Of a stretch of 64,000 bases of DNA, positions 6,029 to 46,592 are shown piece by piece. The translations under genes and the position numbers were made by a program. Below the pieces are notes generated by a model, which saw only the letters and a list, made by a program, of their open reading frames with translations, ran no database searches and was not told the origin of the DNA. The stretch's first letter is position 1; each line of letters starts with the position of its first letter. This DNA comes from Alphaproteobacteria bacterium. GTDB lineage: Bacteria; Pseudomonadota; Alphaproteobacteria; UBA11073. Where the stretch lies: NCBI GenBank assembly GCA_965246945.1, contig CBDFFW010000001.1, forward strand, positions 1,064,311 to 1,128,310, given 5' to 3'.

Positions 6029-6343
6029 GGCATAACTATGCCAAGCCTGCGGCCAAGCTGCAAATTTAGTTATTAAGAATAAATTCCTTTACAATTATCA
6101 TGCGTTTTGTTATATAGACCAAGCGTGCAAACCGAAGACGCGGGTGCGTAGCGATGCTAGCTATGTTGCGCTTAATAACCTGCCGAGGGATGACGCCCAT
6201 CTGGCCCACACCGCCAGATGCACGCGCGCGTGAAATGTCTTCGCTCGTTTAAAGCGGTAACAGTGTTTCTTTTAACTTAAACAAATCCTGCTAAATTCTG
6301 CTTTTACAGCAATCATCGCCATGGCGATGTTAATATTACACAA

Positions 6344-6447
6344 CCTCATCTTGAGGAGCGCCATTGGCGCGTATCGAAGGATGTTTAATGAAGCCATATC
6401 GTTTAAGCAGCCTTCGATACGCAGCAAAACTGCTACTCAGGATGAGG
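6344..6447. repeat. Family A nested palindromic element, copy A1
   Basis: The outer inverted repeat is CCTCATCYTGAGKAG ... CTACTCAGGATGAGG and the inner one is GTATCGAAGGATG ... CAGCCTTCGATAC. The same architecture recurs five more times in the window. Confidence 0.85.
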
Positions 6448-6452
6448 TTTGG

Positions 6453-7586
6453 TTATAAAGGCAAAATATTGCTAGGCGGCTGTAATTGGCCTCGTACTTC
6501 TGCAAACGCTATTTGCTGCGTTGATTTATCCAGCTGATCAAGCGCGGCCAGAATTTTTTCTGCCGTGCAGTCCGCTTGCAGTAATTCGGGAATAACCAGT
6601 TTCCGCAAAACAATATTTACCAAATTGGCAAACGGCGTTTTGATTAAGTGTCGCGCCAGCCACACTGTTAAGGCATGCATTTGATAGGCAATCAGATGTG
6701 GGCAATTGGCCATTGCCAGTTCGAGTGTGACAGTACCCGAGGCCGCAATGGCCGCGCTGGCTGCGCGCATGGCTTGGTATTTTTCGGTGGGATTGCTAGT
6801 GATATAAATATTGGGCCGGTCGCCCATAATTTCACGCACATGGCTTTCCAGATGCGGCAGGGTGGGGATTAGTAGCCACGGCAAACTGCCATCGCGCTGG
6901 CATTGCTGCATGCGCCAGCTATCGGCGGCTTGTATAAAAATGGGCAGCAGTGCTGCTACCTCGCGTTGGCGGCTGCCAGGCAGTAAGCAAAGGGCATTCG
7001 CCGTGCCAATCACTAATTTCCGTTGCAGCGGGGCGGGATCGATTTTTTCGATATCCAATTGCGTGACGGGATGGCCGATAAAGCTCGCTAGCAAACTATA
7101 TTTTTCAAAATAGGGTGGCTCGAACGGAAATAAGCACCATAAATGATCGTATAATTGGGCAATTTTTTTGGCGCGGCCAGCCCGCCACGCCCAAACCGTG
7201 GGTGCCACTTCATGAATTAAGCGCAACCATTTTTTACGTAGCGGTTGTAACTTTTTGGCCAGGCGAAAGCTGAAATCCGGCACATCAATGGTAATCACAA
7301 TATCTGGCTGAAAAGCGGTGATTGCCGCCACGCAATCATTAATGCGCCGCAAGATAGCGGGAATACGCGGCACCACTTCTGCCAATCCCATTAGGGTTAG
7401 TTCACTATAATTAAACAGGCTGGTGGGCAAGCCAGCCGCCTGCATCTGCGGGCCGCCCACACCTTGCCAGGTAATATCCGGATATTGGGCATTCAGCTTG
7501 CGGATGGCATCTGCGCCCAAGGCATCGCCTGATGGTTCCCCAGCTAAAATAAAAATTTTCACGCTTTTTTGTAACACCAACCGCAA
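6453..7586 (-). CDS. lpxB: Lipid-A-disaccharide synthase
   Basis: 377 aa. IFILAGEPSGDALGADAIRKL, VGGPQMQAAG, TIDVPDFSFRLAKKL and VAPTVWAWRAGRAKKI align with the remembered E. coli LpxB motifs. Confidence 0.8.
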   Translation of the reverse strand: MRLVLQKSVKIFILAGEPSGDALGADAIRKLNAQYPDITWQGVGGPQMQAAGLPTSLFNYSELTLMGLAEVVPRIPAILRRINDCVAAITAFQPDIVITIDVPDFSFRLAKKLQPLRKKWLRLIHEVAPTVWAWRAGRAKKIAQLYDHLWCLFPFEPPYFEKYSLLASFIGHPVTQLDIEKIDPAPLQRKLVIGTANALCLLPGSRQREVAALLPIFIQAADSWRMQQCQRDGSLPWLLIPTLPHLESHVREIMGDRPNIYITSNPTEKYQAMRAASAAIAASGTVTLELAMANCPHLIAYQMHALTVWLARHLIKTPFANLVNIVLRKLVIPELLQADCTAEKILAALDQLDKSTQQIAFAEVRGQLQPPSNILPL

Positions 7587-15295: not shown

Positions 15296-15410
15296 GAGTA
15301 GCGAGGCGAAGGCCGAGCGGATCGCAGATCCGGAATCTAGGAGTTAATATGTGCGAAGCTTTGCTTCGCGCTTTGTTTAGTCACTAGATCCCGACTTTCG
15401 TCGGGATGAC
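15282..15410. repeat. Family B palindromic element, copy B2
   Basis: The left arm is the long variant (GTCATTCCGGACAAGAG...GATCCGGAATC). The right arm is the short variant (CACTAGATCCCGACTTTCGTCGGGATGAC). It sits between cmk and rpsA. Confidence 0.85.
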
Positions 15411-15436
15411 GGCCTTTGGCCGCCTGTGCAAAAACA

Positions 15437-20567: not shown

Positions 20568-20576
20568 TTGAATGGG

Positions 20577-20704
20577 TGATCCCGATAAAAATCGGGATCC
20601 AGTGATATAAATATGCGCGGTAGCGCTCAAGATAGTTTGTTTTGTGTCATGCTAATAAGCATGACGAGTTTGATCACTGGATTCCGGCTTTCGCCGGAAT
20701 GACG
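20577..20704. repeat. Family B palindromic element, copy B3
   Basis: GATCCCGATAAAAATCGGGATCCAGTG ... central GTCATGCTAATAAGCATGAC ... CACTGGATTCCGGCTTTCGCCGGAATGACG. Confidence 0.8.
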
Positions 20705-20707
20705 ATG

Positions 20708-21475
20708 CTACTTCAACCCAATCAAACTGATCTGGCGGCCATATTGCGTTTTTTTGTGGTGGGTGTTGTGGCGGTAGCTGAAATATTTATCGGGCTGGGT
20801 ATAAGTATCCGCTGCGCAATCATCAAACTGGATAATGCCCGCAGCAGTTAACTGTTGTTTAAGTATGGCGGGCACATCCAATAAATAGTGGTCAGCCCGC
20901 GTGGCCGGTTTAAACGCGGCCGCGTAGTTGGAATTTTTAGCGGTTGCTTGCGCATATACCTCCGCGCCAACTTCGTAACTGGCTTGGCGAATGCACGGGC
21001 CGATGGTTACGATAATATCGGCTAGTTGCGAACCGGCATATTCCATTGCTTGTAATGTCGCCGGCACAATGCCTGCGATCGCGCCGCGCCAACCGGCATG
21101 GGCGGCCCCCACAATTTCGGCGACCGGATCGGCAAACAGCACTGGCACGCAATCGGCGGTTAAGATACCCAATAATAATCCTGGGATACCGGTAATCATG
21201 GCATCCGCCTGTGGTGATTTGCCCATGCGCCAGGGTTCGGTCACCGGTATCACCTGATCGCCATGCACTTGGTGCAGCGTTAAAATATCTTTAGGGCTGC
21301 CGCCAAATTCAGCGGCGACCAAGGTCCGGTTTTCCCAAATATTTTCGGGGGCATCGCCAGATTTGCTGCCGCAATTTAAACTGGCAAAAATACCGGTGCT
21401 AACCCCGCCTTGGTTGCCGAAAAAACCATGTTGAATTCCCAGCTCCTCAGCTAAGCGTGGCGATTGAATAAACAT
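20708..21475 (-). CDS. pgeF: Peptidoglycan editing factor PgeF (YfiH/DUF152 family)
   Basis: TLHQVHGDQV, ADAMITG...LLGILTADCVPVLFAD and GAAHAGWRG are the signature motifs. Confidence 0.8.
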   Translation of the reverse strand: MFIQSPRLAEELGIQHGFFGNQGGVSTGIFASLNCGSKSGDAPENIWENRTLVAAEFGGSPKDILTLHQVHGDQVIPVTEPWRMGKSPQADAMITGIPGLLLGILTADCVPVLFADPVAEIVGAAHAGWRGAIAGIVPATLQAMEYAGSQLADIIVTIGPCIRQASYEVGAEVYAQATAKNSNYAAAFKPATRADHYLLDVPAILKQQLTAAGIIQFDDCAADTYTQPDKYFSYRHNTHHKKTQYGRQISLIGLK

Positions 21476-25827: not shown

Positions 25828-25934
25828 CCTCATCCTGAGTAGCCATGCAAAGTATGGCGTATCGAAGGATGCTTGACCAGAGTATAGCGTTGGAGCATCC
25901 CTCAATACGCGCTTTGCGCTACTCAGGATGAGGT
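25828..25934. repeat. Family A nested palindromic element, copy A2
   Basis: ACCTCATCCTGAGTAG...GTATCGAAGGATGC...GCATCCCTCAATAC...CTACTCAGGATGAGGT. Confidence 0.85.
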
Positions 25935-25940
25935 TGGTGC

Positions 25941-26669
25941 TTAATTCATTTTTGGCAATAATGCCAAAATGGTTTCGCCGCCTTGCACATTTTGATTTTC
26001 GTAAACGGACAAGGCAAAGCTCAGCGGAATATATAAGCGCATTAAGCCGCCAAAATGGCTGGCACCATAGCGCTGGCTTTGTAACAACAGATCGCCGGCT
26101 TGCGTGTCTAAATCAATTCGGGCAGGAATGATGCCGCCTACATGTTCAATAGCGATTTGCTGGCTGCCTTGGCTAATGATGAGCAGGCCGCGTTCTGTTA
26201 GCGGCGTTTCACCATCATCATTTTTTTGCCATTCGGCCAACCACTGACCCGTTTGGTAATCCAGGGCCGCAATGGTGCCAGAAATTGGACTGCGCAGGCT
26301 GTGGGGATGAAAGAGCCGCGAATAAATTTCAACACAGTGATATTCTTGCCAAGGTGCTTGGGCCAACCCACTGATGGTTGGCAAAGTACCTTTACTTACT
26401 TTTAGCACTTCGCCATCCACCGGACTAACCAATACACCTGGAATATTCGGTACCTGGCGTTTGGGTTCGCGGAATAGCCAAAAGCTGATCACGGCCAGCC
26501 AGCCAAACCAAAACGCCAGCGAGGATTGCAACAGTGAGAATAGCACCGTACCCGCGGCCGCAGCTAAAACATGAGGCAGACCAGCGGGGTGCAGGCGCTG
26601 TTGCCAGATAAAAGACAGATTGTGCTGAAGATAAGCACCCATCTGCCGGGCAATTTTTGACCACTGCAT
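25941..26669 (-). CDS. psd: Phosphatidylserine decarboxylase family proenzyme (short type), tentative
   Basis: N-terminal membrane segment, an SPVDGEV motif and a C-terminal Gly-rich region. The canonical GST cleavage motif is not obvious (the protein has ...YGASHFGG...), hence the moderate confidence. Confidence 0.5.
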   Translation of the reverse strand: MQWSKIARQMGAYLQHNLSFIWQQRLHPAGLPHVLAAAAGTVLFSLLQSSLAFWFGWLAVISFWLFREPKRQVPNIPGVLVSPVDGEVLKVSKGTLPTISGLAQAPWQEYHCVEIYSRLFHPHSLRSPISGTIAALDYQTGQWLAEWQKNDDGETPLTERGLLIISQGSQQIAIEHVGGIIPARIDLDTQAGDLLLQSQRYGASHFGGLMRLYIPLSFALSVYENQNVQGGETILALLPKMN

Positions 26670-26717
26670 TTGTGGGGATTATTAGTTATAATATACAAAT
26701 CTACAAGCTTCTCTTCA

Positions 26718-26823
26718 CCTCGTCCTGAGTAGGGCATCGCCCGTATCGAAGGATGCTCCAGCTATATACCTTGGTTAAGCATCCTTCGATACAAACGTTA
26801 AGGCGTTCTAATCAGAATGAGGT
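26718..26823. repeat. Family A nested palindromic element, copy A3 (right outer arm degenerate)
   Basis: CCTCGTCCTGAGTAG...GTATCGAAGGATGC...GCATCCTTCGATAC...CTAATCAGAATGAGG. Confidence 0.8.
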
Positions 26824-26874
26824 TTGTTGAATTTGTTGAAGCATGTTGCAGCGCATGGCACAAATAGTCGTTCA

Positions 26875-34592: not shown

Positions 34593-34703
34593 CCTCATCC
34601 TGAGGAGCCAAGCATCGCTTGGTGTCTCGAAGGATGCTCTAGTGGAATTGCCAGCTTAAGCATCCTTCGAGACGCAGCTTATTAGCTGCTCCTCAGGATG
34701 AGG
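34593..34703. repeat. Family A nested palindromic element, copy A4
   Basis: CCTCATCCTGAGGAG...GTCTCGAAGGATGC...GCATCCTTCGAGAC...CTCCTCAGGATGAGG. Both arms carry compensatory changes, so the pairing is preserved. Confidence 0.85.
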
Positions 34704-34914
34704 TGGGGCGCTATATGTCTTGGTTTGCAAATCTTGGCAAGCACAATATCTTGTGTTTTTTTGTGATTAACCCATTGCAAGCCGCCTATTTCCCTGCTTA
34801 GAGTATTTTCAGCGTTAGCAGATCTAGCATTTAAGCGGGTTTGCGGCGTGGCAGAGATTGCAGGACCAGTAAACTGGCGGGTCTCTGGCTTAAACATCAT
34901 TGAAGGGGATTCCC

Positions 34915-35293: not shown

Positions 35294-35418
35294 GTCATCC
35301 CGACGAAAGTCGGGATCTAGTGGTATAATCTGCGCGAAGCGCTCAAAATTATTATTTTGCATTACGCTAAAGCATAATACTTTTTAATCACTGGATTCCG
35401 ACTTTCGTTGGGATGACG
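35294..35418. repeat. Family B palindromic element, copy B5
   Basis: GTCATCCCGACGAAAGTCGGGATCTAGTG ... CACTGGATTCCGACTTTCGTTGGGATGACG. Confidence 0.85.
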
Positions 35419-35422
35419 ATAT

Positions 35423-36043
35423 CTAGAAAATCTGTTGCCACTTTTCTTGCAACACTGCATCTACCTCCGCCATGCCCACTTGTTTACCAAGCGCATGTAT
35501 GGAGGTCACACCGAATTCGCTGATGCCGCAGGGGATGATGCCGATATAATGGGATAGGTCTGGGTTTACATTTAAGGCGATGCCGTGAAAGCTAACGCCG
35601 CGGCGCACGCGCAGGCCGATGGCGGCAATCTTAGCTTCTTGCCCGCGGTTATCTATAGTCCAAATGCCAACGCGGCCAGACCGTCTTTCGCCCTTAATAT
35701 CAAATTCGGCCAGGGTTTGAATCAGCCATTCTTCCAACTGACAGACCAAGCGGCGCACATCAAGCTCGCGTTTGAATAAATCTAGCATGACATAGGCGAT
35801 GCGCTGACCTGGTCCGTGATAAGTATATTGCCCGCCGCGGCCAGTTTGATGCACAGGGAAGCGTGCTTGCAGTAAATCTGCGGCTTTGGCACTGCTGCCA
35901 GCGGTGTACAGGGCAGGGTGTTCTAATAGCCAAACCAGCTCATCGGCATCGGCAGCGCGGATTGTCGCCACGCGGGTTTCCATGGCCGCAACTGCCGCTG
36001 GATAATCCTGCAATTCCTTGCTTATTTGCCATTCGAGGGTCAT
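35423..36043 (-). CDS. lipB: Octanoyltransferase (lipoyl(octanoyl) transferase)
   Basis: 206 aa with the LipB catalytic region (…[12 protein letters not shown]…, …[19 protein letters not shown]…, cysteine in …IIPCGI…). Confidence 0.85.
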
Positions 36044-36256: not shown

Positions 36257-36346
36257 CCTCGTCCTGAGTATTGAAGGATGCTTAACTGGGGTATATCGCT
36301 GGAGCATCCTTCGATACGAACGCGCTGCGTTCTACTCAGGATGAGG
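36257..36346. repeat. Family A nested palindromic element, copy A5 (left inner arm shortened)
   Basis: CCTCGTCCTGAGTA-TTGAAGGATGC...GCATCCTTCGATAC...CTACTCAGGATGAGG. Confidence 0.8.
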
Positions 36347-36401
36347 TTATGTATTAATAAGGGCATTTGCTAAAAAGCGTTTATGTGATTAATTTAATTG
36401 T

Positions 36402-37115: not shown

Positions 37116-37122
37116 TACTGAC

Positions 37123-37225
37123 CTCTTCCTGAGTAGCGCTGCAAGCGCGTATCGAAGGATGCCTATGGTTCCACCCTCATTAAGCATCCTTCGATACAAA
37201 TGCTGCGCGTTTTACTCAGGATGAG
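37123..37225. repeat. Family A nested palindromic element, copy A6
   Basis: CCTCTTCCTGAGTAG...GTATCGAAGGATGC...GCATCCTTCGATAC...TTACTCAGGATGAG. Confidence 0.85.
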
Positions 37226-37247
37226 ATTTGTTTAAGGTATAAAAATT

Positions 37248-39497: not shown

Positions 39498-40313
39498 ATG
39501 AAAAAGACCGCCCTTATCACCGGCAGTGCCAAACGAATTGGTGCGGTAATTGCGCAGCATTTGGCGGCCGCTGGTTATGATATTGTTATTCATTATCACC
39601 GCAGTGTTGTTGAAGCTAAGCAGTTGGCAGACCAATTAACCACACAATATCGGGTTAAAGCTTCAACAGTTGCCGCTGACCTAGCCAATTTGGTGCAAGT
39701 TGAAAATTTATGGCAGCAGATAATTGCGCAAGCAGGCCAAATTGATTTGCTGATAAATAATGCGGCCTGGTTCGATCCTGCCAATGATCCAGTTGAACAT
39801 AGCGATCCGCAAATTACTAAAACAGTCTGGCAAATTAATACGCATACACCGCAGCGTTTAAGTGAATTATTTGCCGCGCAAAACGGTTTAACAAATGGCC
39901 ATATCATTAATATTTTGGATTATCGGGTCTTGAAACCCAGTGGGAGCTTTCCAATTTATACCGCTAGCAAAACTGCTTTATGGCAAGTTACTCAGCAGCT
40001 TGCATTGGATTACGCGCCAACTGTTCGCGTAAATGCGTTGGCATTAGGCATGGCGATGCGGGCCAATGACCAAACGCAAGAACATTTTGAAAAGCATATT
40101 ATGGCAGCACCTTTGCAACGCAGCGGCGATGCGGATGAAATTGCCTGTGCTGTTTTAGCGTTAGAAAATCTATCGAGTGTGACCGGACAAATTTTGGCTT
40201 TGGACGGCGGTATGCATTTAACCAACGTCATCCCGACGAAAGTCGGGATCCAGTGGCCAACAGTACAATGCGAAGCTTTGTTCAAAAAATTAATTTTATT
40301 TGCATCACGCTAA
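39498..40313 (+). CDS. SDR-family oxidoreductase (pteridine/monapterin reductase-like); the last ~30 codons come from repeat B6
   Basis: TGSAKRIGAVIA cofactor motif and catalytic Y..K in ...YTASKTAL.... The SDR fold ends near ...ALDGGMHL. The remaining tail (…TNVIPTKVGIQWPTVQCEALFKKLILFASR) is encoded by the repeat. Confidence 0.7.
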   Translation: MKKTALITGSAKRIGAVIAQHLAAAGYDIVIHYHRSVVEAKQLADQLTTQYRVKASTVAADLANLVQVENLWQQIIAQAGQIDLLINNAAWFDPANDPVEHSDPQITKTVWQINTHTPQRLSELFAAQNGLTNGHIINILDYRVLKPSGSFPIYTASKTALWQVTQQLALDYAPTVRVNALALGMAMRANDQTQEHFEKHIMAAPLQRSGDADEIACAVLALENLSSVTGQILALDGGMHLTNVIPTKVGIQWPTVQCEALFKKLILFASR

Positions 40314-40360
40314 AGCGTGACAATTATAATCACTGGATCCCGACTTTCGTCGGGATGACG
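40227..40360. repeat. Family B palindromic element, copy B6, overlapping the 3' ends of two convergent CDS
   Basis: GTCATCCCGACGAAAGTCGGGATCCAGTG ... CACTGGATCCCGACTTTCGTCGGGATGACG. Read on either strand the arm encodes VIPTKVGIQ. Confidence 0.85.
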
Positions 40361-41079
40361 AGGCCTAAAACATCCTGCATATCGTATTGACCAGGCGGTT
40401 TATTTAAAACCCAGCTGGCGGCATGCACTGCGCCGCGCGCAAAAATGGCGCGGTCCGTGGCGCGGTGGGTTAGCTCTAGCCGCTCTTGCTGGCCGAAGAA
40501 AAAGGCTGTGTGTTCACCGGCAACGTCACCGCCGCGGGCGACACTGAAGCCGATATGGCCAGTTGCGCGCACACCAGTATGGCCATCACGAGCCGCAACT
40601 TTATTTGTTGCTAAATCTATATTCCGGCCCTTCGCAGCAGCCTGACCGAGCATTAATGCCGTACCACTTGGCGCATCAACTTTTTGATTGTGGTGTGTTT
40701 CAAAAATTTCAATATCGAATAATTCGGGCGGCAAGGTTTGCGCAGCGCGTTCGATCAGCCAGTTGAGTACATTCACGCCCAAGGAATAATTGGCGGCATA
40801 AACCACGGCTTGATTTTGCGCATAGTTTTTGATCAGCAGTTCCTGATCTGGGGATAATCCCGTGGTGCCAATCACCAGGCGGGGCTTGGTCGATTGTTGG
40901 GCAGCCCAATTTAATAAGGCTGCCGTTGCTTCCGGCGTGCTGAAATCAATGATTACAGCGCTGCCGGCCAACGCCGCCAAATCATCACCGCGGTCGACAG
41001 CTTTGAATAAATGATTGCCTGCCAGCTGAACCAATTGCTGGCCCATACGCCCCTTGGCACCGTGAATACTGATTTTCAT
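40330..41079 (-). CDS. dapB: 4-hydroxy-tetrahydrodipicolinate reductase
   Basis: MKISIHGAKGRMGQ NAD(P) motif and the DapB catalytic region (…FETHHNQKVDAPSGTAL…). The last 9 codons (VIPTKVGIQ) come from repeat B6. Confidence 0.85.
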   Translation of the reverse strand: MKISIHGAKGRMGQQLVQLAGNHLFKAVDRGDDLAALAGSAVIIDFSTPEATAALLNWAAQQSTKPRLVIGTTGLSPDQELLIKNYAQNQAVVYAANYSLGVNVLNWLIERAAQTLPPELFDIEIFETHHNQKVDAPSGTALMLGQAAAKGRNIDLATNKVAARDGHTGVRATGHIGFSVARGGDVAGEHTAFFFGQQERLELTHRATDRAIFARGAVHAASWVLNKPPGQYDMQDVLGLVIPTKVGIQ

Positions 41080-43233: not shown

Positions 43234-43242
43234 TTAGCGCCG

Positions 43243-43372
43243 TCATTCCGACGAAAGTCGGAATCCAGTGGTTGATAAGTGCAATGCATCGCATTGCTCA
43301 AACAATAATTATTTTGTGTCATGCTGCGCATGACGAGTCTGGGTCACTGGATCCCGATTTGCATCGGGATGA
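43243..43372. repeat. Family B palindromic element, copy B7
   Basis: GTCATTCCGACGAAAGTCGGAATCCAGTG ... central GTCATGCTGCGCATGAC ... CACTGGATCCCGATTTGCATCGGGATGACG. Confidence 0.85.
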
Positions 43373-45739
43373 CGATTCTGTTTCAATCAAATGTGCTAGG
43401 AAATCAGCAGGACGTTTGTTGGAATCTTGCGCCATCCATTGGTGATAGATAACGGTGGATGGCGTGAGACCTGGCAAAGTATTGGCTTCGATCAGCAGCG
43501 CTTGATCGGTTTTGATGTTAAAGAAAATATCGAGACGGGCGTAGTTTTGGATGCCGAGTGTCGCAGCCGCCTTTTCGATTTTGCTTTCAATTATTGTCCG
43601 TTGCGCGGCGCTGATGATACTGACCGGCGGCGGCGTTAAATTCACGCCTGTCCCACCTTGGAATTTTTCTTCCAAGCTTAAGACCGCATTGGCCGCCACC
43701 GTGATACTTGGCGGCAGGGATTGATATATACCGTTTTGCTCCAGAACACCAACGGTCAATTCAATCCAGCCAGTGTGGGCTTCATGTTTTAATTCTGTAC
43801 CGACAATTTGCAGGTGATCGGTTTCAATGTAAGGTTCTAAAATATACTTACTGCTGTGTGCGCTGGCGAGTTCGACAATTTCTGGTTGTTCGGCAAAACT
43901 ATGCGGCGGAAAAAAGCTGGCACCTGCACGCAGGAATTTGCCGTAAATGGCAAGTTGGACAGCATCGCTGAGTTTAATCACGCCAGCCGAACAGCCTTCA
44001 TCTTGTGGTTTTAGGATCAATTTTTGGGACTGCCAATTGGTGGTTAATTCCTGCCACAAGTCAACCCAATCGGTGCTGGCATTTTCCAGATCCGCTTGGC
44101 TTAGATGATGTTTGGGGCAGGCAGTTAACTGTTTATCGCGCAGGGCATCAATCGCAGCGCCGGTTGCGAGTTTATCCATGCATAATGCCGAAGCCGCTGA
44201 ACCCGAACCGTTATAATGCAGACCGCGCCCATCAAGCTCTGCCTGCAACCGGCCATCTTCACCCATGCCGCCATGCAAGCCTAAAAAGACAAAGGCATTT
44301 TGTGCTGCCGCTTTCTGTAAGAAGTTTTCTAATGATAAAGATTGCGGTTCGGCTAATGCGGCTTGCTGTTCGATTTCACTATAGCCAAGCGCCGGTAAAA
44401 TTTGTGGTAGATACGGCTTCAAACTGGCCGTGATACTGGCGCTATCGGCACAGCTGTGCATAATTTCTTCAACCGTGTGTTGCAGGGCATAAGCATAGGG
44501 CAATTGCCAGATGGTTTGCGCATCGGTGCCAAGTAGAAATAGCTGCGGTGAACAATTTGCCGTCTGTTGCAATTTCAGCCAAACATTGGTCCCGCTCATC
44601 AATGAAACTTGCCGCTCGGCCGTGCTGCCGCCACAAATTACGGCGACCAGCTCTGTGCCATTACGCGGTTGGGCCGGCGGTAAGACAACGCCATGCCGCT
44701 GGGCCGCACTGTTTAGAACATGGCGTAAAACCTGGCGGTGGGTGAGGCCGATGCGGGCGGCTTGTTGGAATAAAAAGCTGTTCTGTTCCATTCCGCTAAT
44801 CGGGTTTAAATCAGAAAATAAAACGGTGCCGTCTTTTAACCACCAGCCATCCAAGCGCGCAAAATCCTGCATGCCGAATAATTTAAAAATCTGCGCTGCC
44901 TGCTGGCGGATGGTGTTAATCACATTGGTAGGAAAACGCGGCGGGCAGAAATAAGCGGCTTGGTTGGTGGGTAGATATTTGCGGCGAAAATCGAAGATTT
45001 GATTGTCTTGGTAACTAACTGCGATTTCGCTGGGTAGCAATGCAACGGGTTCGCCGTCTGTGCCGGTTAGCACAACAATAGTAAATTCCTGGCCATCACA
45101 AAATGGTTCAATCATCACACGGCTATCATGCGTCTGGGCGAGCAGTTTATCGGCCGCAGCAGTGGCGGCTTCAGCGCTAGCCACCGAATGCACGCCAATG
45201 CTGCTGCCACCGGCCACGGGTTTAACGACAGCGCGCTGCAAATTATGTGTGCGCCAAAAAACGGGAATGGCCGTGCTTTCTTCCGCTTGGCTGACGGTGA
45301 GACTGGGCAGCGTGGCCAGGCCATTGGCCCGCAATATACTGGCCGCAACATCTTTGAAAAACATTTGGCGGCAGGCGGCGGCTGGGCTGGCAACATATGG
45401 AATATCATGCTGCTCTAAAAAATTCTGGAGCTGACCATCTTCGCCGTAAGCGCCATGAATGGCGGGGAAAACCAGATGGCAAGCTTGCAGTGCTTCAACC
45501 ACCTGTTTTTCATTCAAAACCTGTGCGGTTTCGGCGAGTTTGAAATCGAAATCAGAAGGCGTGTTTGAATAAAGTTGGGTGGTGGAAAGCCGATAAAATT
45601 TCAGTTTCTCATCCACATAAAATGGCACAATTTCGATATTGCTATCGGCGATATGATCAAGCAGGGAACGAGCAGAATTAAGGGAAATACCCCGCTCGGC
45701 CGATGGCCCGCCACAAATCACTGCAAGTTGAAATGACAT
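43319..45739 (-). CDS. Tandem fusion of two D-alanine--D-alanine ligase-like ATP-grasp modules (806 aa)
   Basis: Two N-terminal Ddl-type motifs (LAVICGGPSAERGISLNSA and VAVICGGSTAERQVSLMSG), each followed by an ATP-grasp region. The last ~17 codons (…ESSSRCKSGSSDPDSSCAA) lie inside repeat B7. Confidence 0.65.
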   Translation of the reverse strand: MSFQLAVICGGPSAERGISLNSARSLLDHIADSNIEIVPFYVDEKLKFYRLSTTQLYSNTPSDFDFKLAETAQVLNEKQVVEALQACHLVFPAIHGAYGEDGQLQNFLEQHDIPYVASPAAACRQMFFKDVAASILRANGLATLPSLTVSQAEESTAIPVFWRTHNLQRAVVKPVAGGSSIGVHSVASAEAATAAADKLLAQTHDSRVMIEPFCDGQEFTIVVLTGTDGEPVALLPSEIAVSYQDNQIFDFRRKYLPTNQAAYFCPPRFPTNVINTIRQQAAQIFKLFGMQDFARLDGWWLKDGTVLFSDLNPISGMEQNSFLFQQAARIGLTHRQVLRHVLNSAAQRHGVVLPPAQPRNGTELVAVICGGSTAERQVSLMSGTNVWLKLQQTANCSPQLFLLGTDAQTIWQLPYAYALQHTVEEIMHSCADSASITASLKPYLPQILPALGYSEIEQQAALAEPQSLSLENFLQKAAAQNAFVFLGLHGGMGEDGRLQAELDGRGLHYNGSGSAASALCMDKLATGAAIDALRDKQLTACPKHHLSQADLENASTDWVDLWQELTTNWQSQKLILKPQDEGCSAGVIKLSDAVQLAIYGKFLRAGASFFPPHSFAEQPEIVELASAHSSKYILEPYIETDHLQIVGTELKHEAHTGWIELTVGVLEQNGIYQSLPPSITVAANAVLSLEEKFQGGTGVNLTPPPVSIISAAQRTIIESKIEKAAATLGIQNYARLDIFFNIKTDQALLIEANTLPGLTPSTVIYHQWMAQDSNKRPADFLAHLIETESSSRCKSGSSDPDSSCAA

Positions 45740-45783
45740 GCGTTAATGCTAATAATGTTAAAGGCTTTTGCCTAGCAAAAGCC

Positions 45784-45910
45784 GTCATCCCGACGGAAGT
45801 CGGGATCTAGTGATAAATTAATGAATCATGCTGGCATGATACAAAATTATTCTTTTTTGAGCGCTACGCGCAGTTTTAGTCACTGGATCCCGACTTTCGT
45901 CGGGATGACG
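45784..45910. repeat. Family B palindromic element, copy B8
   Basis: GTCATCCCGACGGAAGTCGGGATCTAGTG ... central ATCATGCTGGCATGAT ... CACTGGATCCCGACTTTCGTCGGGATGACG. Confidence 0.85.
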
Positions 45911-45911
45911 A

Positions 45912-46592
45912 TTATAACAATCCCAACTGGCGGAAACTGGCATGGGCGGTTTTGGCGATGATGATGTGGTCGTGCAGTAAAATGCCGACGGCGGCGGTGG
46001 CTTGGTTGATTTGTTGGGTGAGCAGAATATCGGCCTGGCTGGGGGTCGGGTCACCGCCTGGGTGGTTGTGGACCATGATTAACGCAGAAGCGCCATGATT
46101 TAACGCGCGTTTGATAATTTCACGCGGATAGGCGGGCGTATGATCAATCGTGCCTTCCTGTTGCACTTCATCGGCGATTAGCCGGTTTTTCTTGTCTAAA
46201 AATAACAGGCGCAATTGTTCGCGGTTCACATGCGCCATGGCCATATGGCAATATTCAATTAGCTGCTGCCAATTGCTTAGCACCGTTTTGTTGTGCACCT
46301 GCTGCTGCGCCATCACCAGGGCGGCGGCCTGCACGGCTTTGAACAGCGCAATGGCACCATAACCCAAACCTTTGAACTGTTGCAGTTCATCCACATTGGC
46401 GGCGAGCAAGCGGTTGAATGAACCAAATTGTTTTAACAAATCCTTGGCCAGCGGTTTTACATCGCGCCGCGGAATGGCATAGCATAACAGCAATTCCAGT
46501 AATTCATATTCCGCCACGCCCGCCACACCGGCGGTTAAAAATCGGGCCTTTAGCCTGGCGCGGTGGCCGCTGTGATCTGGTACATCACCCAT
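45912..46592 (-). CDS. radC: RadC-like JAB-domain protein
   Basis: N-terminal HhH-like region and the C-terminal JAMM motif (…MVHNHPGGDPTPSQADILLT…). Confidence 0.8.
   Translation of the reverse strand: MGDVPDHSGHRARLKARFLTAGVAGVAEYELLELLLCYAIPRRDVKPLAKDLLKQFGSFNRLLAANVDELQQFKGLGYGAIALFKAVQAAALVMAQQQVHNKTVLSNWQQLIEYCHMAMAHVNREQLRLLFLDKKNRLIADEVQQEGTIDHTPAYPREIIKRALNHGASALIMVHNHPGGDPTPSQADILLTQQINQATAAVGILLHDHIIIAKTAHASFRQLGLL

Follow-up and report, generated by a model that had tools for sequence, protein, structure and literature searches.

An 806-codon open reading frame (ORF) with its stop codon, located at 43319..45739 on the minus strand of a 64,000-nt stretch of the alphaproteobacterial contig CBDFFW010000001.1 (hereafter the window; all positions are given in window numbering), encodes two Ddl (D-alanine–D-alanine ligase) modules joined in one polypeptide chain. 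With a probability of roughly 0.7, this tandem gene encodes the housekeeping peptidoglycan D-Ala:D-Ala ligase of the bacterium, a covalent pseudo-dimer whose C-terminal module (C module) would be catalytically competent but have a remodelled second-substrate pocket. The housekeeping role is considered the most likely one because relatives of the gene fill the ddl slot of the division and cell wall (dcw) cluster, because they are accompanied by alr, PBP1A, diaminopimelate (DAP) pathway and dipeptidase genes, and because some of them are fused to MurF and Alr.

The ORF starts with ATG and contains no internal stop codons, and its homologs are 50-82% identical to it. The N-terminal module (N module; residues 1-350, 44690..45739, minus strand) is a Tyr-type Ddl according to domain, alignment and TIGR01205 evidence. 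It is followed by a poorly conserved linker (residues 351-362, 44654..44689, minus strand; mean pairwise identity 0.15), the C module (residues 363-788, 43376..44653, minus strand), which is a divergent Ddl with two insertions, and a C-terminal tail (residues 789-806, SSSRCKSGSSDPDSSCAA, and the stop codon; 43319..43375, minus strand), encoded by a palindromic repeat element. The Ddl N-terminal motif is present twice, at residues 5-20 (LAVICGGPSAERGISL) and residues 365-380 (VAVICGGSTAERQVSL), and the Pfam domains Dala_Dala_lig_N and Dala_Dala_lig_C were each found two times in the whole protein. The C half alone matches PF01820 (1.6e-16) and PF07478 (3.6e-11), as well as solved Ddl structures at 6e-18. 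The two halves can be aligned over their whole length with 23% identity (E 1e-13), the insertions of the C module relative to the N half being located at about residues 418-480 and 592-632.

On the curated Ddl model TIGR01205, the two modules add up to 309.2 bits for the whole protein, against a cutoff of 245.65 bits that neither half reaches by itself. Other ATP-grasp models in Pfam gave only weak and overlapping matches, namely, ATP-grasp_4 (31.5 bits), GARS_A (below cutoff) and ATP-grasp_3, and no match to RimK or cyanophycin-synthetase models was found in the protein family scans. The AlphaFold2 model, built on 40 family members, shows two ATP-grasp bodies with a mean predicted local distance difference test score (pLDDT) of 89.4 and a predicted TM-score (pTM) of 0.89; given these values, the modules are expected to be held in a fixed relative arrangement, and the model suggests that they pack as a fixed intramolecular pseudo-dimer. 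The top Foldseek matches in the PDB are all single-module Ddl, VanA, VanG or LmDdl2 structures, each covering about half of the model, with TM-scores of 0.78-0.88 when normalised to the target and about 0.35 when normalised to the query. The tandem form is absent among the solved structures matched by this fold search.

For a comparison of the active sites, the N and C halves of 40 family members were aligned to E. coli DdlB, whose sequence and residue roles we take to be those of Fan et al. 1994 and of the work of the Walsh laboratory; the alignment was consistent with separate HMMER alignments. A wider survey covered 130-154 diverse representatives, counted where a given position could be aligned. 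In the N module, the Glu-Ser-Tyr triad is preserved as E15, S179 and Y255 (DdlB E15/S150/Y216), along with K254, R295, D297 and N312, while Glu270 of DdlB is replaced by Asp (D310). In the C module the triad is E375-C583-F693 and DdlB S281/L282 are replaced by T762/V763; the residues for ATP, Mg and catalysis, namely, E375, K523, K577, K692, R735, D737, E751 and N753, are kept. Thus, at DdlB positions S150, Y216, E270, S281 and L282, the N module has Ser, Tyr, Asp, Ser and Phe/Tyr, and the C module has Cys, Phe, Glu, Thr and Val (Val/Cys), respectively. Among the diverse representatives, Ser (119/121) and Tyr (126/128) were found in the N module, and Cys (151/154), Phe (149/152) and Thr (145/147) in the C module.

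Residues E15, S19, H63, E68, K97, K144, S151, E180, E187, K215, R255, D257 and N272 (DdlB numbering) are invariant in both modules in 40/40 members, and K215, R255, D257 and N272, re-checked in the wider survey, are invariant in both modules wherever aligned. The only change among ATP, Mg2+ and transition-state residues is the conservative replacement of Glu270 by Asp in the N module. The N and C modules have mean pairwise identities of 0.57 and 0.52, respectively, as against 0.15 for the linker. Judging by this conservation, both modules are under similar constraint and neither resembles a decayed pseudo-enzyme. The substrate-side differences between them are fixed across the family. The sequence-only reading had pointed out that a tandem would allow the two active sites to diverge; they have in fact diverged, and in a strictly conserved manner, the N module having Glu-Ser-Tyr where the C module has Glu-Cys-Phe.

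In the proposed mechanism, the N module with its intact Glu-Ser-Tyr triad would phosphorylate D-Ala with ATP and then condense it with a second D-Ala, and MurF would add the resulting D-Ala-D-Ala dipeptide to UDP-MurNAc-tripeptide. The C module would also be a working ATP-dependent ligase site, since its nucleotide, Mg2+ and transition-state residues are all invariant. Its second-substrate pocket would have undergone remodelling (Ser150 to Cys, Tyr216 to Phe, Ser281 to Thr and Leu282 to Val/Cys) and become frozen afterwards, and accordingly the C module most likely either forms D-Ala-D-Ala with kinetics or regulation of its own, or takes a different nucleophile.

Canonical Ddl consists of two identical subunits of approximately 300-360 aa each. 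Comparison with canonical enzymes (EC 6.3.2.4; E. coli DdlB, 2DLN/1IOV, and Salmonella DdlA, 3I12) showed that each half of the window protein has the same three-domain ATP-grasp fold, that all catalytic residues are present, with the Glu15-Ser150-Tyr216 triad retained by the N module, and that the gene occupies the same dcw slot in relatives. Unlike the canonical homodimer, the window protein is one 806-aa chain of two non-identical modules (23% identity), in which Asp replaces Glu270 and Phe replaces Leu282 of DdlB on the N side, and the C module has Cys150, Phe216, Thr281, Val282 and two insertions.

The tandem form is not an oddity of this genome, as its description as unusual in the sequence-only reading might imply. 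A word-indexed protein search gave, among the matches listed, at least 120 full-length homologs of about 790-840 aa with 50-82% identity and 97-99% coverage, the named ones belonging to Candidatus Protochlamydia phocaeensis and P. naegleriophila. A relative is encoded by at least 568 GTDB species genomes, which is a lower bound obtained by scanning one genome per species with two peptide patterns. The best 80 of these are spread over Alphaproteobacteria metagenome-assembled genomes (MAGs), with Micavibrio, Rickettsiales and Holosporaceae among them, Gammaproteobacteria, Parachlamydiaceae and other Chlamydiota, Bdellovibrionales and many lineages of Patescibacteria, or the candidate phyla radiation (CPR). 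When only the C half served as the query of an exhaustive HMMER search, 267 representative clusters were obtained at E<=1e-30, nearly all of which match at about 365-790 of a protein of about 780-830 aa, and the form extends to plant and algal DDL. In the neighbour-joining tree, the grouping of which is broadly by phylum, the window protein is located among Alphaproteobacteria and adjoins OZ251979.1. Identities vary little, being 0.52-0.55 inside groups and 0.47-0.50 from one group to another, a pattern that fits an old, tightly constrained enzyme.

Carriers belong mostly to lineages known or suspected to depend on other cells, namely, CPR epibionts, Chlamydiota, Rickettsiales, Holosporaceae, Micavibrio and Bdellovibrionales; this apparent trend is drawn from the record titles of the best 80 genomes as sampled, and plants and algae are carriers too. 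Some relatives contain additional domains. An extra N-terminal helix-turn-helix domain of the XRE/HigA type is present in P0018, P0037, P0044, P0047, P0103 and P0110 (about 900-927 aa), which suggests self-regulation of a cell-wall enzyme; a GNAT acetyltransferase domain was found in P0143, and a PASTA domain in P0243. A second tandem class of approximately 900-920 aa is represented in metagenomes by P0244, P0249, P0256, P0268, P0271 and P0243. These proteins have a typical C-type module at about 480-890, and their N module, at about 450 aa, is larger and has diverged much further: it fits the N-type hidden Markov model (HMM) no better than E. coli DdlB does, with Ser/Tyr and Asp270 kept.

The gene neighbourhoods of the best 80 loci of the at least 568 species genomes, plus the window, were analysed by calling ORFs, clustering them with BLAST and annotating recurrent neighbours. 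In locus L013 the tandem gene is located in the order MurE, MurF, MraY, FtsW, MurG, MurC, MurB, tandem gene, FtsQ, FtsA, and the adjacent MurF passes the equivalog model for the D-Ala-D-Ala-adding enzyme. Partial dcw order was found in L004, L007, L009 and L040, in some cases extending to FtsZ and LpxC, and the ftsQ-ftsA pair is adjacent or near-adjacent to the tandem gene in 13 of the 80 loci. The murC-murB-X-ftsQ order indicates that in relatives the tandem gene fills the ddl slot of the canonical dcw cluster; the check for a separate ddl close to ftsQ, proposed in the sequence-only reading, led in relatives to the tandem gene. The alr gene adjoins the tandem gene in 8 loci, mostly of CPR. 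PBP1A directly follows it in L005, L014 and L077 and is located one or two ORFs away in L019 and L047, and in L005 and L014 the genes dapB-dapA-dapD and a desuccinylase-like gene precede it. In Chlamydiota, the tandem gene is followed by lnt in 9 loci, several of which continue to lpxC, fabZ and lpxA. In two of the 80 loci (L028 and L030), the next gene encodes a Peptidase_M15 D-Ala-D-Ala dipeptidase of the VanX/DdpX type.

Direct fusions were also found. The 1,262-aa relative P0146 has the composition Ddl-Ddl-MurF, its MurF part scoring 319.7 bits on TIGR01143 (cutoff 288.6), and the 1,638-aa relative P0213 has the composition Ddl-Ddl-MurF-Alr, with 352.8 bits for MurF and 295.7 bits for Alr on TIGR00492 (cutoff 168). 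P0213 thus carries the whole D-alanine branch of peptidoglycan synthesis on one chain, and the MurF and Alr fusions are Rosetta-stone evidence for a predicted role in peptidoglycan synthesis.

Several further features of individual loci were noted. In L013:3241-5448 and L040:291-2963, mraY is directly followed by ftsW, and the murD that separates the two in the canonical order is missing from this position; the second module as a replacement of MurD was rejected, since bona fide murD genes are present in L009 and L007 (TIGR01087, 358 and 355 bits). An extra single Ddl-like ORF of 308 aa is located directly upstream of the tandem gene at L070:305-1228, and a Ddl-like ATP-grasp ORF lies about 5 kb downstream of it at L081:17400-18700. 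The latter lacks the GGxSxE N-terminal motif and on this ground was ruled out as a canonical Ddl. Accordingly, some genomes pair the tandem gene with further Ddl-like paralogs. In a Saccharibacteria MAG (L065:9229-14694), the tandem ddl is located between a SerB-like haloacid dehalogenase (HAD) gene and serA-serC, and in a Nomurabacteria MAG (L055:812-3789), SerB-like HAD and SerA are fused in a 635-aa protein adjoining the tandem gene, so that it looks as if the ddl gene of L065 sits between two parts that are fused in L055. The 2-hydroxyacid dehydrogenase ORFs of these two loci, detected by a signature regular expression, were considered as VanH-like D-lactate dehydrogenases and rejected; they are SerA, because an ACT domain was found by Pfam and because the SerB-like HAD and a SerC-like aminotransferase are encoded alongside.

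Among characterized proteins, the same architecture is found in plants, where DDL is a fusion of two DDL genes (PMC9954125). In moss, knockout of Ddl leads to macrochloroplasts and a block of plastid division, and D-Ala-D-Ala forms part of the chloroplast envelope (PMC7432710, PMC12681378); moss peptidoglycan precursors have the same pentapeptide as typical Gram-negative bacteria (PMC9434261). As in the window protein, two Ddl units form one chain in the plastid peptidoglycan D-Ala:D-Ala ligase of plants and green algae (Physcomitrium patens PpDdl, Arabidopsis DDL). Green algae are the source of two long relatives that contain SAP domains, the proteins of [Myrmecia] bisecta (P0221) and Tetraselmis astigmatica (P0231). 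The bacterial N-half and C-half HMMs match their N-terminal and C-terminal modules, respectively, so that the order of an N-type followed by a C-type module is common to both kinds of protein. The signature residues are also common to both, where aligned. The algal N modules have Ser and Tyr, and the C modules have Cys, Thr and Val (where alignable), with Phe at the Phe position in the Myrmecia protein and Val in the Tetraselmis protein. The eukaryotic DDL differ in their length (about 900 to 1,900 aa), N-terminal extensions, SAP domains and large insertions, and are only 31-40% identical to the bacterial proteins, of which the window protein represents the compact form. No bacterial donor of algal DDL could be singled out by identity comparison, all bacterial groups being equidistant. 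The functional data available for double Ddl come from moss only and, by analogy, point to ordinary D-Ala-D-Ala synthesis.

A number of observations weigh against the window protein being the housekeeping ligase. Taken alone, the halves miss the TIGR01205 cutoff of 245.65 bits (194.2 bits for the N half and 120.5 bits for the C half), and the automatic label 'D-alanine--D-alanine ligase' on such proteins depends on the addition of two sub-threshold module scores; in the relative P0146, the N module by itself (residues 3-345, one matched stretch) accounts for the score of 304.8 bits. The pseudo-dimer packing is a prediction from pTM. The window gene is not located beside cell-wall genes, the nearest being dapB, three genes off, and no dcw genes were found in the 64-kb window. 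No separate single-module ddl was found there either, tblastn with E. coli DdlB detecting only both halves of the ORF; this search covered 64 kb, and a separate single-module ddl may be present elsewhere in the genome. The functional data concern the moss homolog and are taken from the literature, the activity of the bacterial proteins being predicted. Finally, the fixed Cys, Phe, Thr and Val changes argue that the C module is not simply a second identical Ddl site.

The same changes provide the basis for a bifunctional enzyme, in which the N module would make D-Ala-D-Ala and the Phe-type C module D-Ala-D-lactate, D-Ala-D-Ser or another D-Ala-X, leading to alternative termini. Phe at Tyr216 and Cys at Ser150 are nearly universal in the C modules of the representatives surveyed (149/152 and 151/154), and Park, Lin and Walsh reportedly found in 1996 that the DdlB mutants Y216F and S150A gain D-Ala-D-Lac activity. 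The Leuconostoc mesenteroides ligase LmDdl2 (1EHI), which is among the best structural matches, has Phe at the omega-loop position, as does the C module, and in lactic acid bacteria a single Phe/Tyr residue at this position decides between depsipeptide and dipeptide synthesis (PMC5996685). The VanX/DdpX-type dipeptidase genes immediately downstream in L028 and L030, as well as the serine biosynthesis genes flanking the tandem gene in L055 and L065, agree with such a function. However, the omega-loop Phe is the sole feature of D-Ala-D-lactate or D-Ala-D-Ser ligases that is present: the VanA, VanC, VanG and LmDdl2 ligases are single-module, unlike the tandem protein, the NCBIfam models are far below their cutoffs (at best 141 bits against 550 for D_ala_D_lac and 197.9 against 495 for VanG), and no VanH-like or VanT (serine racemase) partner recurs in the 80 neighbourhoods, the only 2-hydroxyacid dehydrogenase being SerA. 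Besides, moss, whose DDL is of the fused type, accumulates the pentapeptide of the Gram-negative type (PMC9434261), and the MurF adjacent in L013 belongs to the D-Ala-D-Ala-adding equivalog. Bifunctionality of this kind is therefore regarded as unlikely. Less probable still is a non-catalytic C module that would serve only as a dimer interface or as an allosteric sensor of ATP or D-Ala, with all chemistry performed by the N module. The C module is the more divergent half (120.5 against 194.2 bits on TIGR01205), has two lineage-specific insertions and a broken Glu-Ser-Tyr triad; however, pseudo-enzymes normally lose the ATP, Mg and transition-state residues, while in the C module K97, K144, E180, E187, K215, R255, D257, E270 and N272 are invariant wherever aligned, from CPR to green algae, and its constraint is about equal to that of the N module.

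An artefact, namely, a frameshift in sequencing or assembly that merged two adjacent ddl genes, or membership of another ATP-grasp family (RimK-like or cyanophycin-synthetase-like), has a negligible probability. The only finding in its favour is a few 'stand-alone C-half' proteins of about 405-434 aa found in metagenomes by the HMMER search. The one that was examined, P0126, was rejected as a stand-alone enzyme: it is encoded on a 1,994-bp contig, starts at base 20 and is most likely a contig-end fragment. The ORF is continuous, both domain pairs occur twice in it, and the fused length recurs in hundreds of independent assemblies of many phyla, in agreement with the proposal of the sequence-only reading that the protein is a covalent Ddl-Ddl tandem. 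Only Ddl families score above cutoff and the fold matches are all Ddl or Van ligases, so the RimK-like or cyanophycin-synthetase-like identity, which that reading had named as the case in which its proposal would fall, is contradicted. The housekeeping D-Ala-D-Ala ligase with a competent, remodelled C module is retained as the preferred interpretation.

Another covalent arrangement of Ddl is known from Chlamydiaceae, in which Ddl is fused to a partner as MurC-Ddl (PMC5814848, PMC3935232). Like the tandem protein, it combines covalent fusion with a host-dependent lineage; its partner, however, is a Mur ligase and not a second Ddl, and environmental chlamydiae (Protochlamydia, Parachlamydiaceae) contain the tandem instead. 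The MurC-Ddl model NF011171, whose cutoff is 1015 bits, gives 118.7 bits with the window protein, and the Pfam scan detected no Mur ligase domain in this protein. In open-access papers on tandem, fused or double Ddl, only MurC-Ddl and the plant fusion were found, and no open-access paper describing a bacterial tandem form or heterotypic active sites was found. The architecture and genetics of double DDL were already known from plants, and the window protein is a bacterial member of this kind.

Directly upstream of the tandem gene in the window is radC (45912..46592, minus strand), encoding a RadC-like JAB domain (PF04002, 6.9e-43). The same gene is located upstream on the same strand in the alphaproteobacterial relatives L002 and L023 (cluster c36), with a 4-bp overlap of radC and the tandem gene in L001/L002; the radC-tandem ddl pair may form an operon. 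Other neighbours in the window are a convergent AAA_5 ATPase gene downstream, ahpD, ahpC and dapB. A scan for promoters and terminators around the tandem gene gave counts at chance level.

Palindromic elements of approximately 130 nt, designated family B and similar to miniature inverted-repeat transposable elements (MITE) or Rickettsia palindromic elements (RPE), are present on both sides of the gene, as the sequence-only reading had indicated. One copy (43241..43374; inverted repeats I14, I18 and I22; families D1 and D3) overlaps the 3' end of the ORF, and the second copy (45783..45910; I20) is located upstream of the tandem gene, between its start and radC. The arms of I20, 45783-45813 and 45880-45910, are 94% complementary. 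The arms of family B are CGTCATCCCGACGAAAGTCGGGATCCAGTGA and its complement, and at least 6 copies are present in the window, further copies being located at 40227-40374, 35294-35432, 20576-20718 and 15375-15425. The arm 43342-43374 lies within the 3' part of the ORF, and the element supplies its last 18 codons. The closest homolog, P0002 (82% identity), ends in ...LIETATSK, whereas the window protein runs on as ...LIETESSSRCKSGSSDPDSSCAA, the two diverging exactly where the element starts; tail residues 797-806 have pLDDT <50 in the AlphaFold2 model. The repeat has apparently inserted between radC and the gene, and a second copy appears to have replaced the last few codons and the stop codon. 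Similarly, the C terminus VIPTKVGIQ of dapB (40330-41079, minus strand) is encoded by the same element in another frame. Family B copies thus repeatedly overlap the 3' ends of genes and provide the last codons and the stop, a behaviour resembling that of the Rickettsia palindromic elements. Intergenic palindromic repeats of another, unrelated family, GCGTATCGAAGGATG...CATCCTTCGATACGC, with CCTCATCCTGAGTAG and CTACTCAGGATGAGG on their flanks, are present in the window in at least 6 copies (6334-6457, 25828-25944, 26717-26833, 34593-34714, 36264-36357 and 37121-37237).

Ddl is a validated antibiotic target (D-cycloserine), and its reprogramming causes vancomycin resistance. The heterotypic fused double Ddl is the form present across CPR, environmental chlamydiae, Micavibrio- and Bdellovibrio-like predators, Rickettsiales, Holosporaceae and many uncultured Proteobacteria. 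A more speculative idea, held to be possible but doubtful, is that the C module, conserved from CPR to green plants, provides a ligase site with a chemistry of its own, its frozen Glu-Cys-Phe/Thr-Val pocket allowing D-Ala to be joined to some other nucleophile (a D-hydroxy acid, D-Ser or a different D-amino acid), or that it serves as a catalytic sensor tuning the D-Ala-D-Ala output. If so, organisms with double Ddl, plastids included, would make or regulate wall termini beyond the reach of canonical Ddl, and the bias to epibiotic, predatory and intracellular lineages would reflect differing from, or resisting, the wall-targeting enzymes of hosts or prey and glycopeptides. The plastid DDL of plants and algae has the same design with the same two site flavours, the Tyr type and the Cys/Phe type. 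The bacterial protein therefore offers a compact model for the puzzling plant DDL fusion and poses a precise question about the role of the second site.

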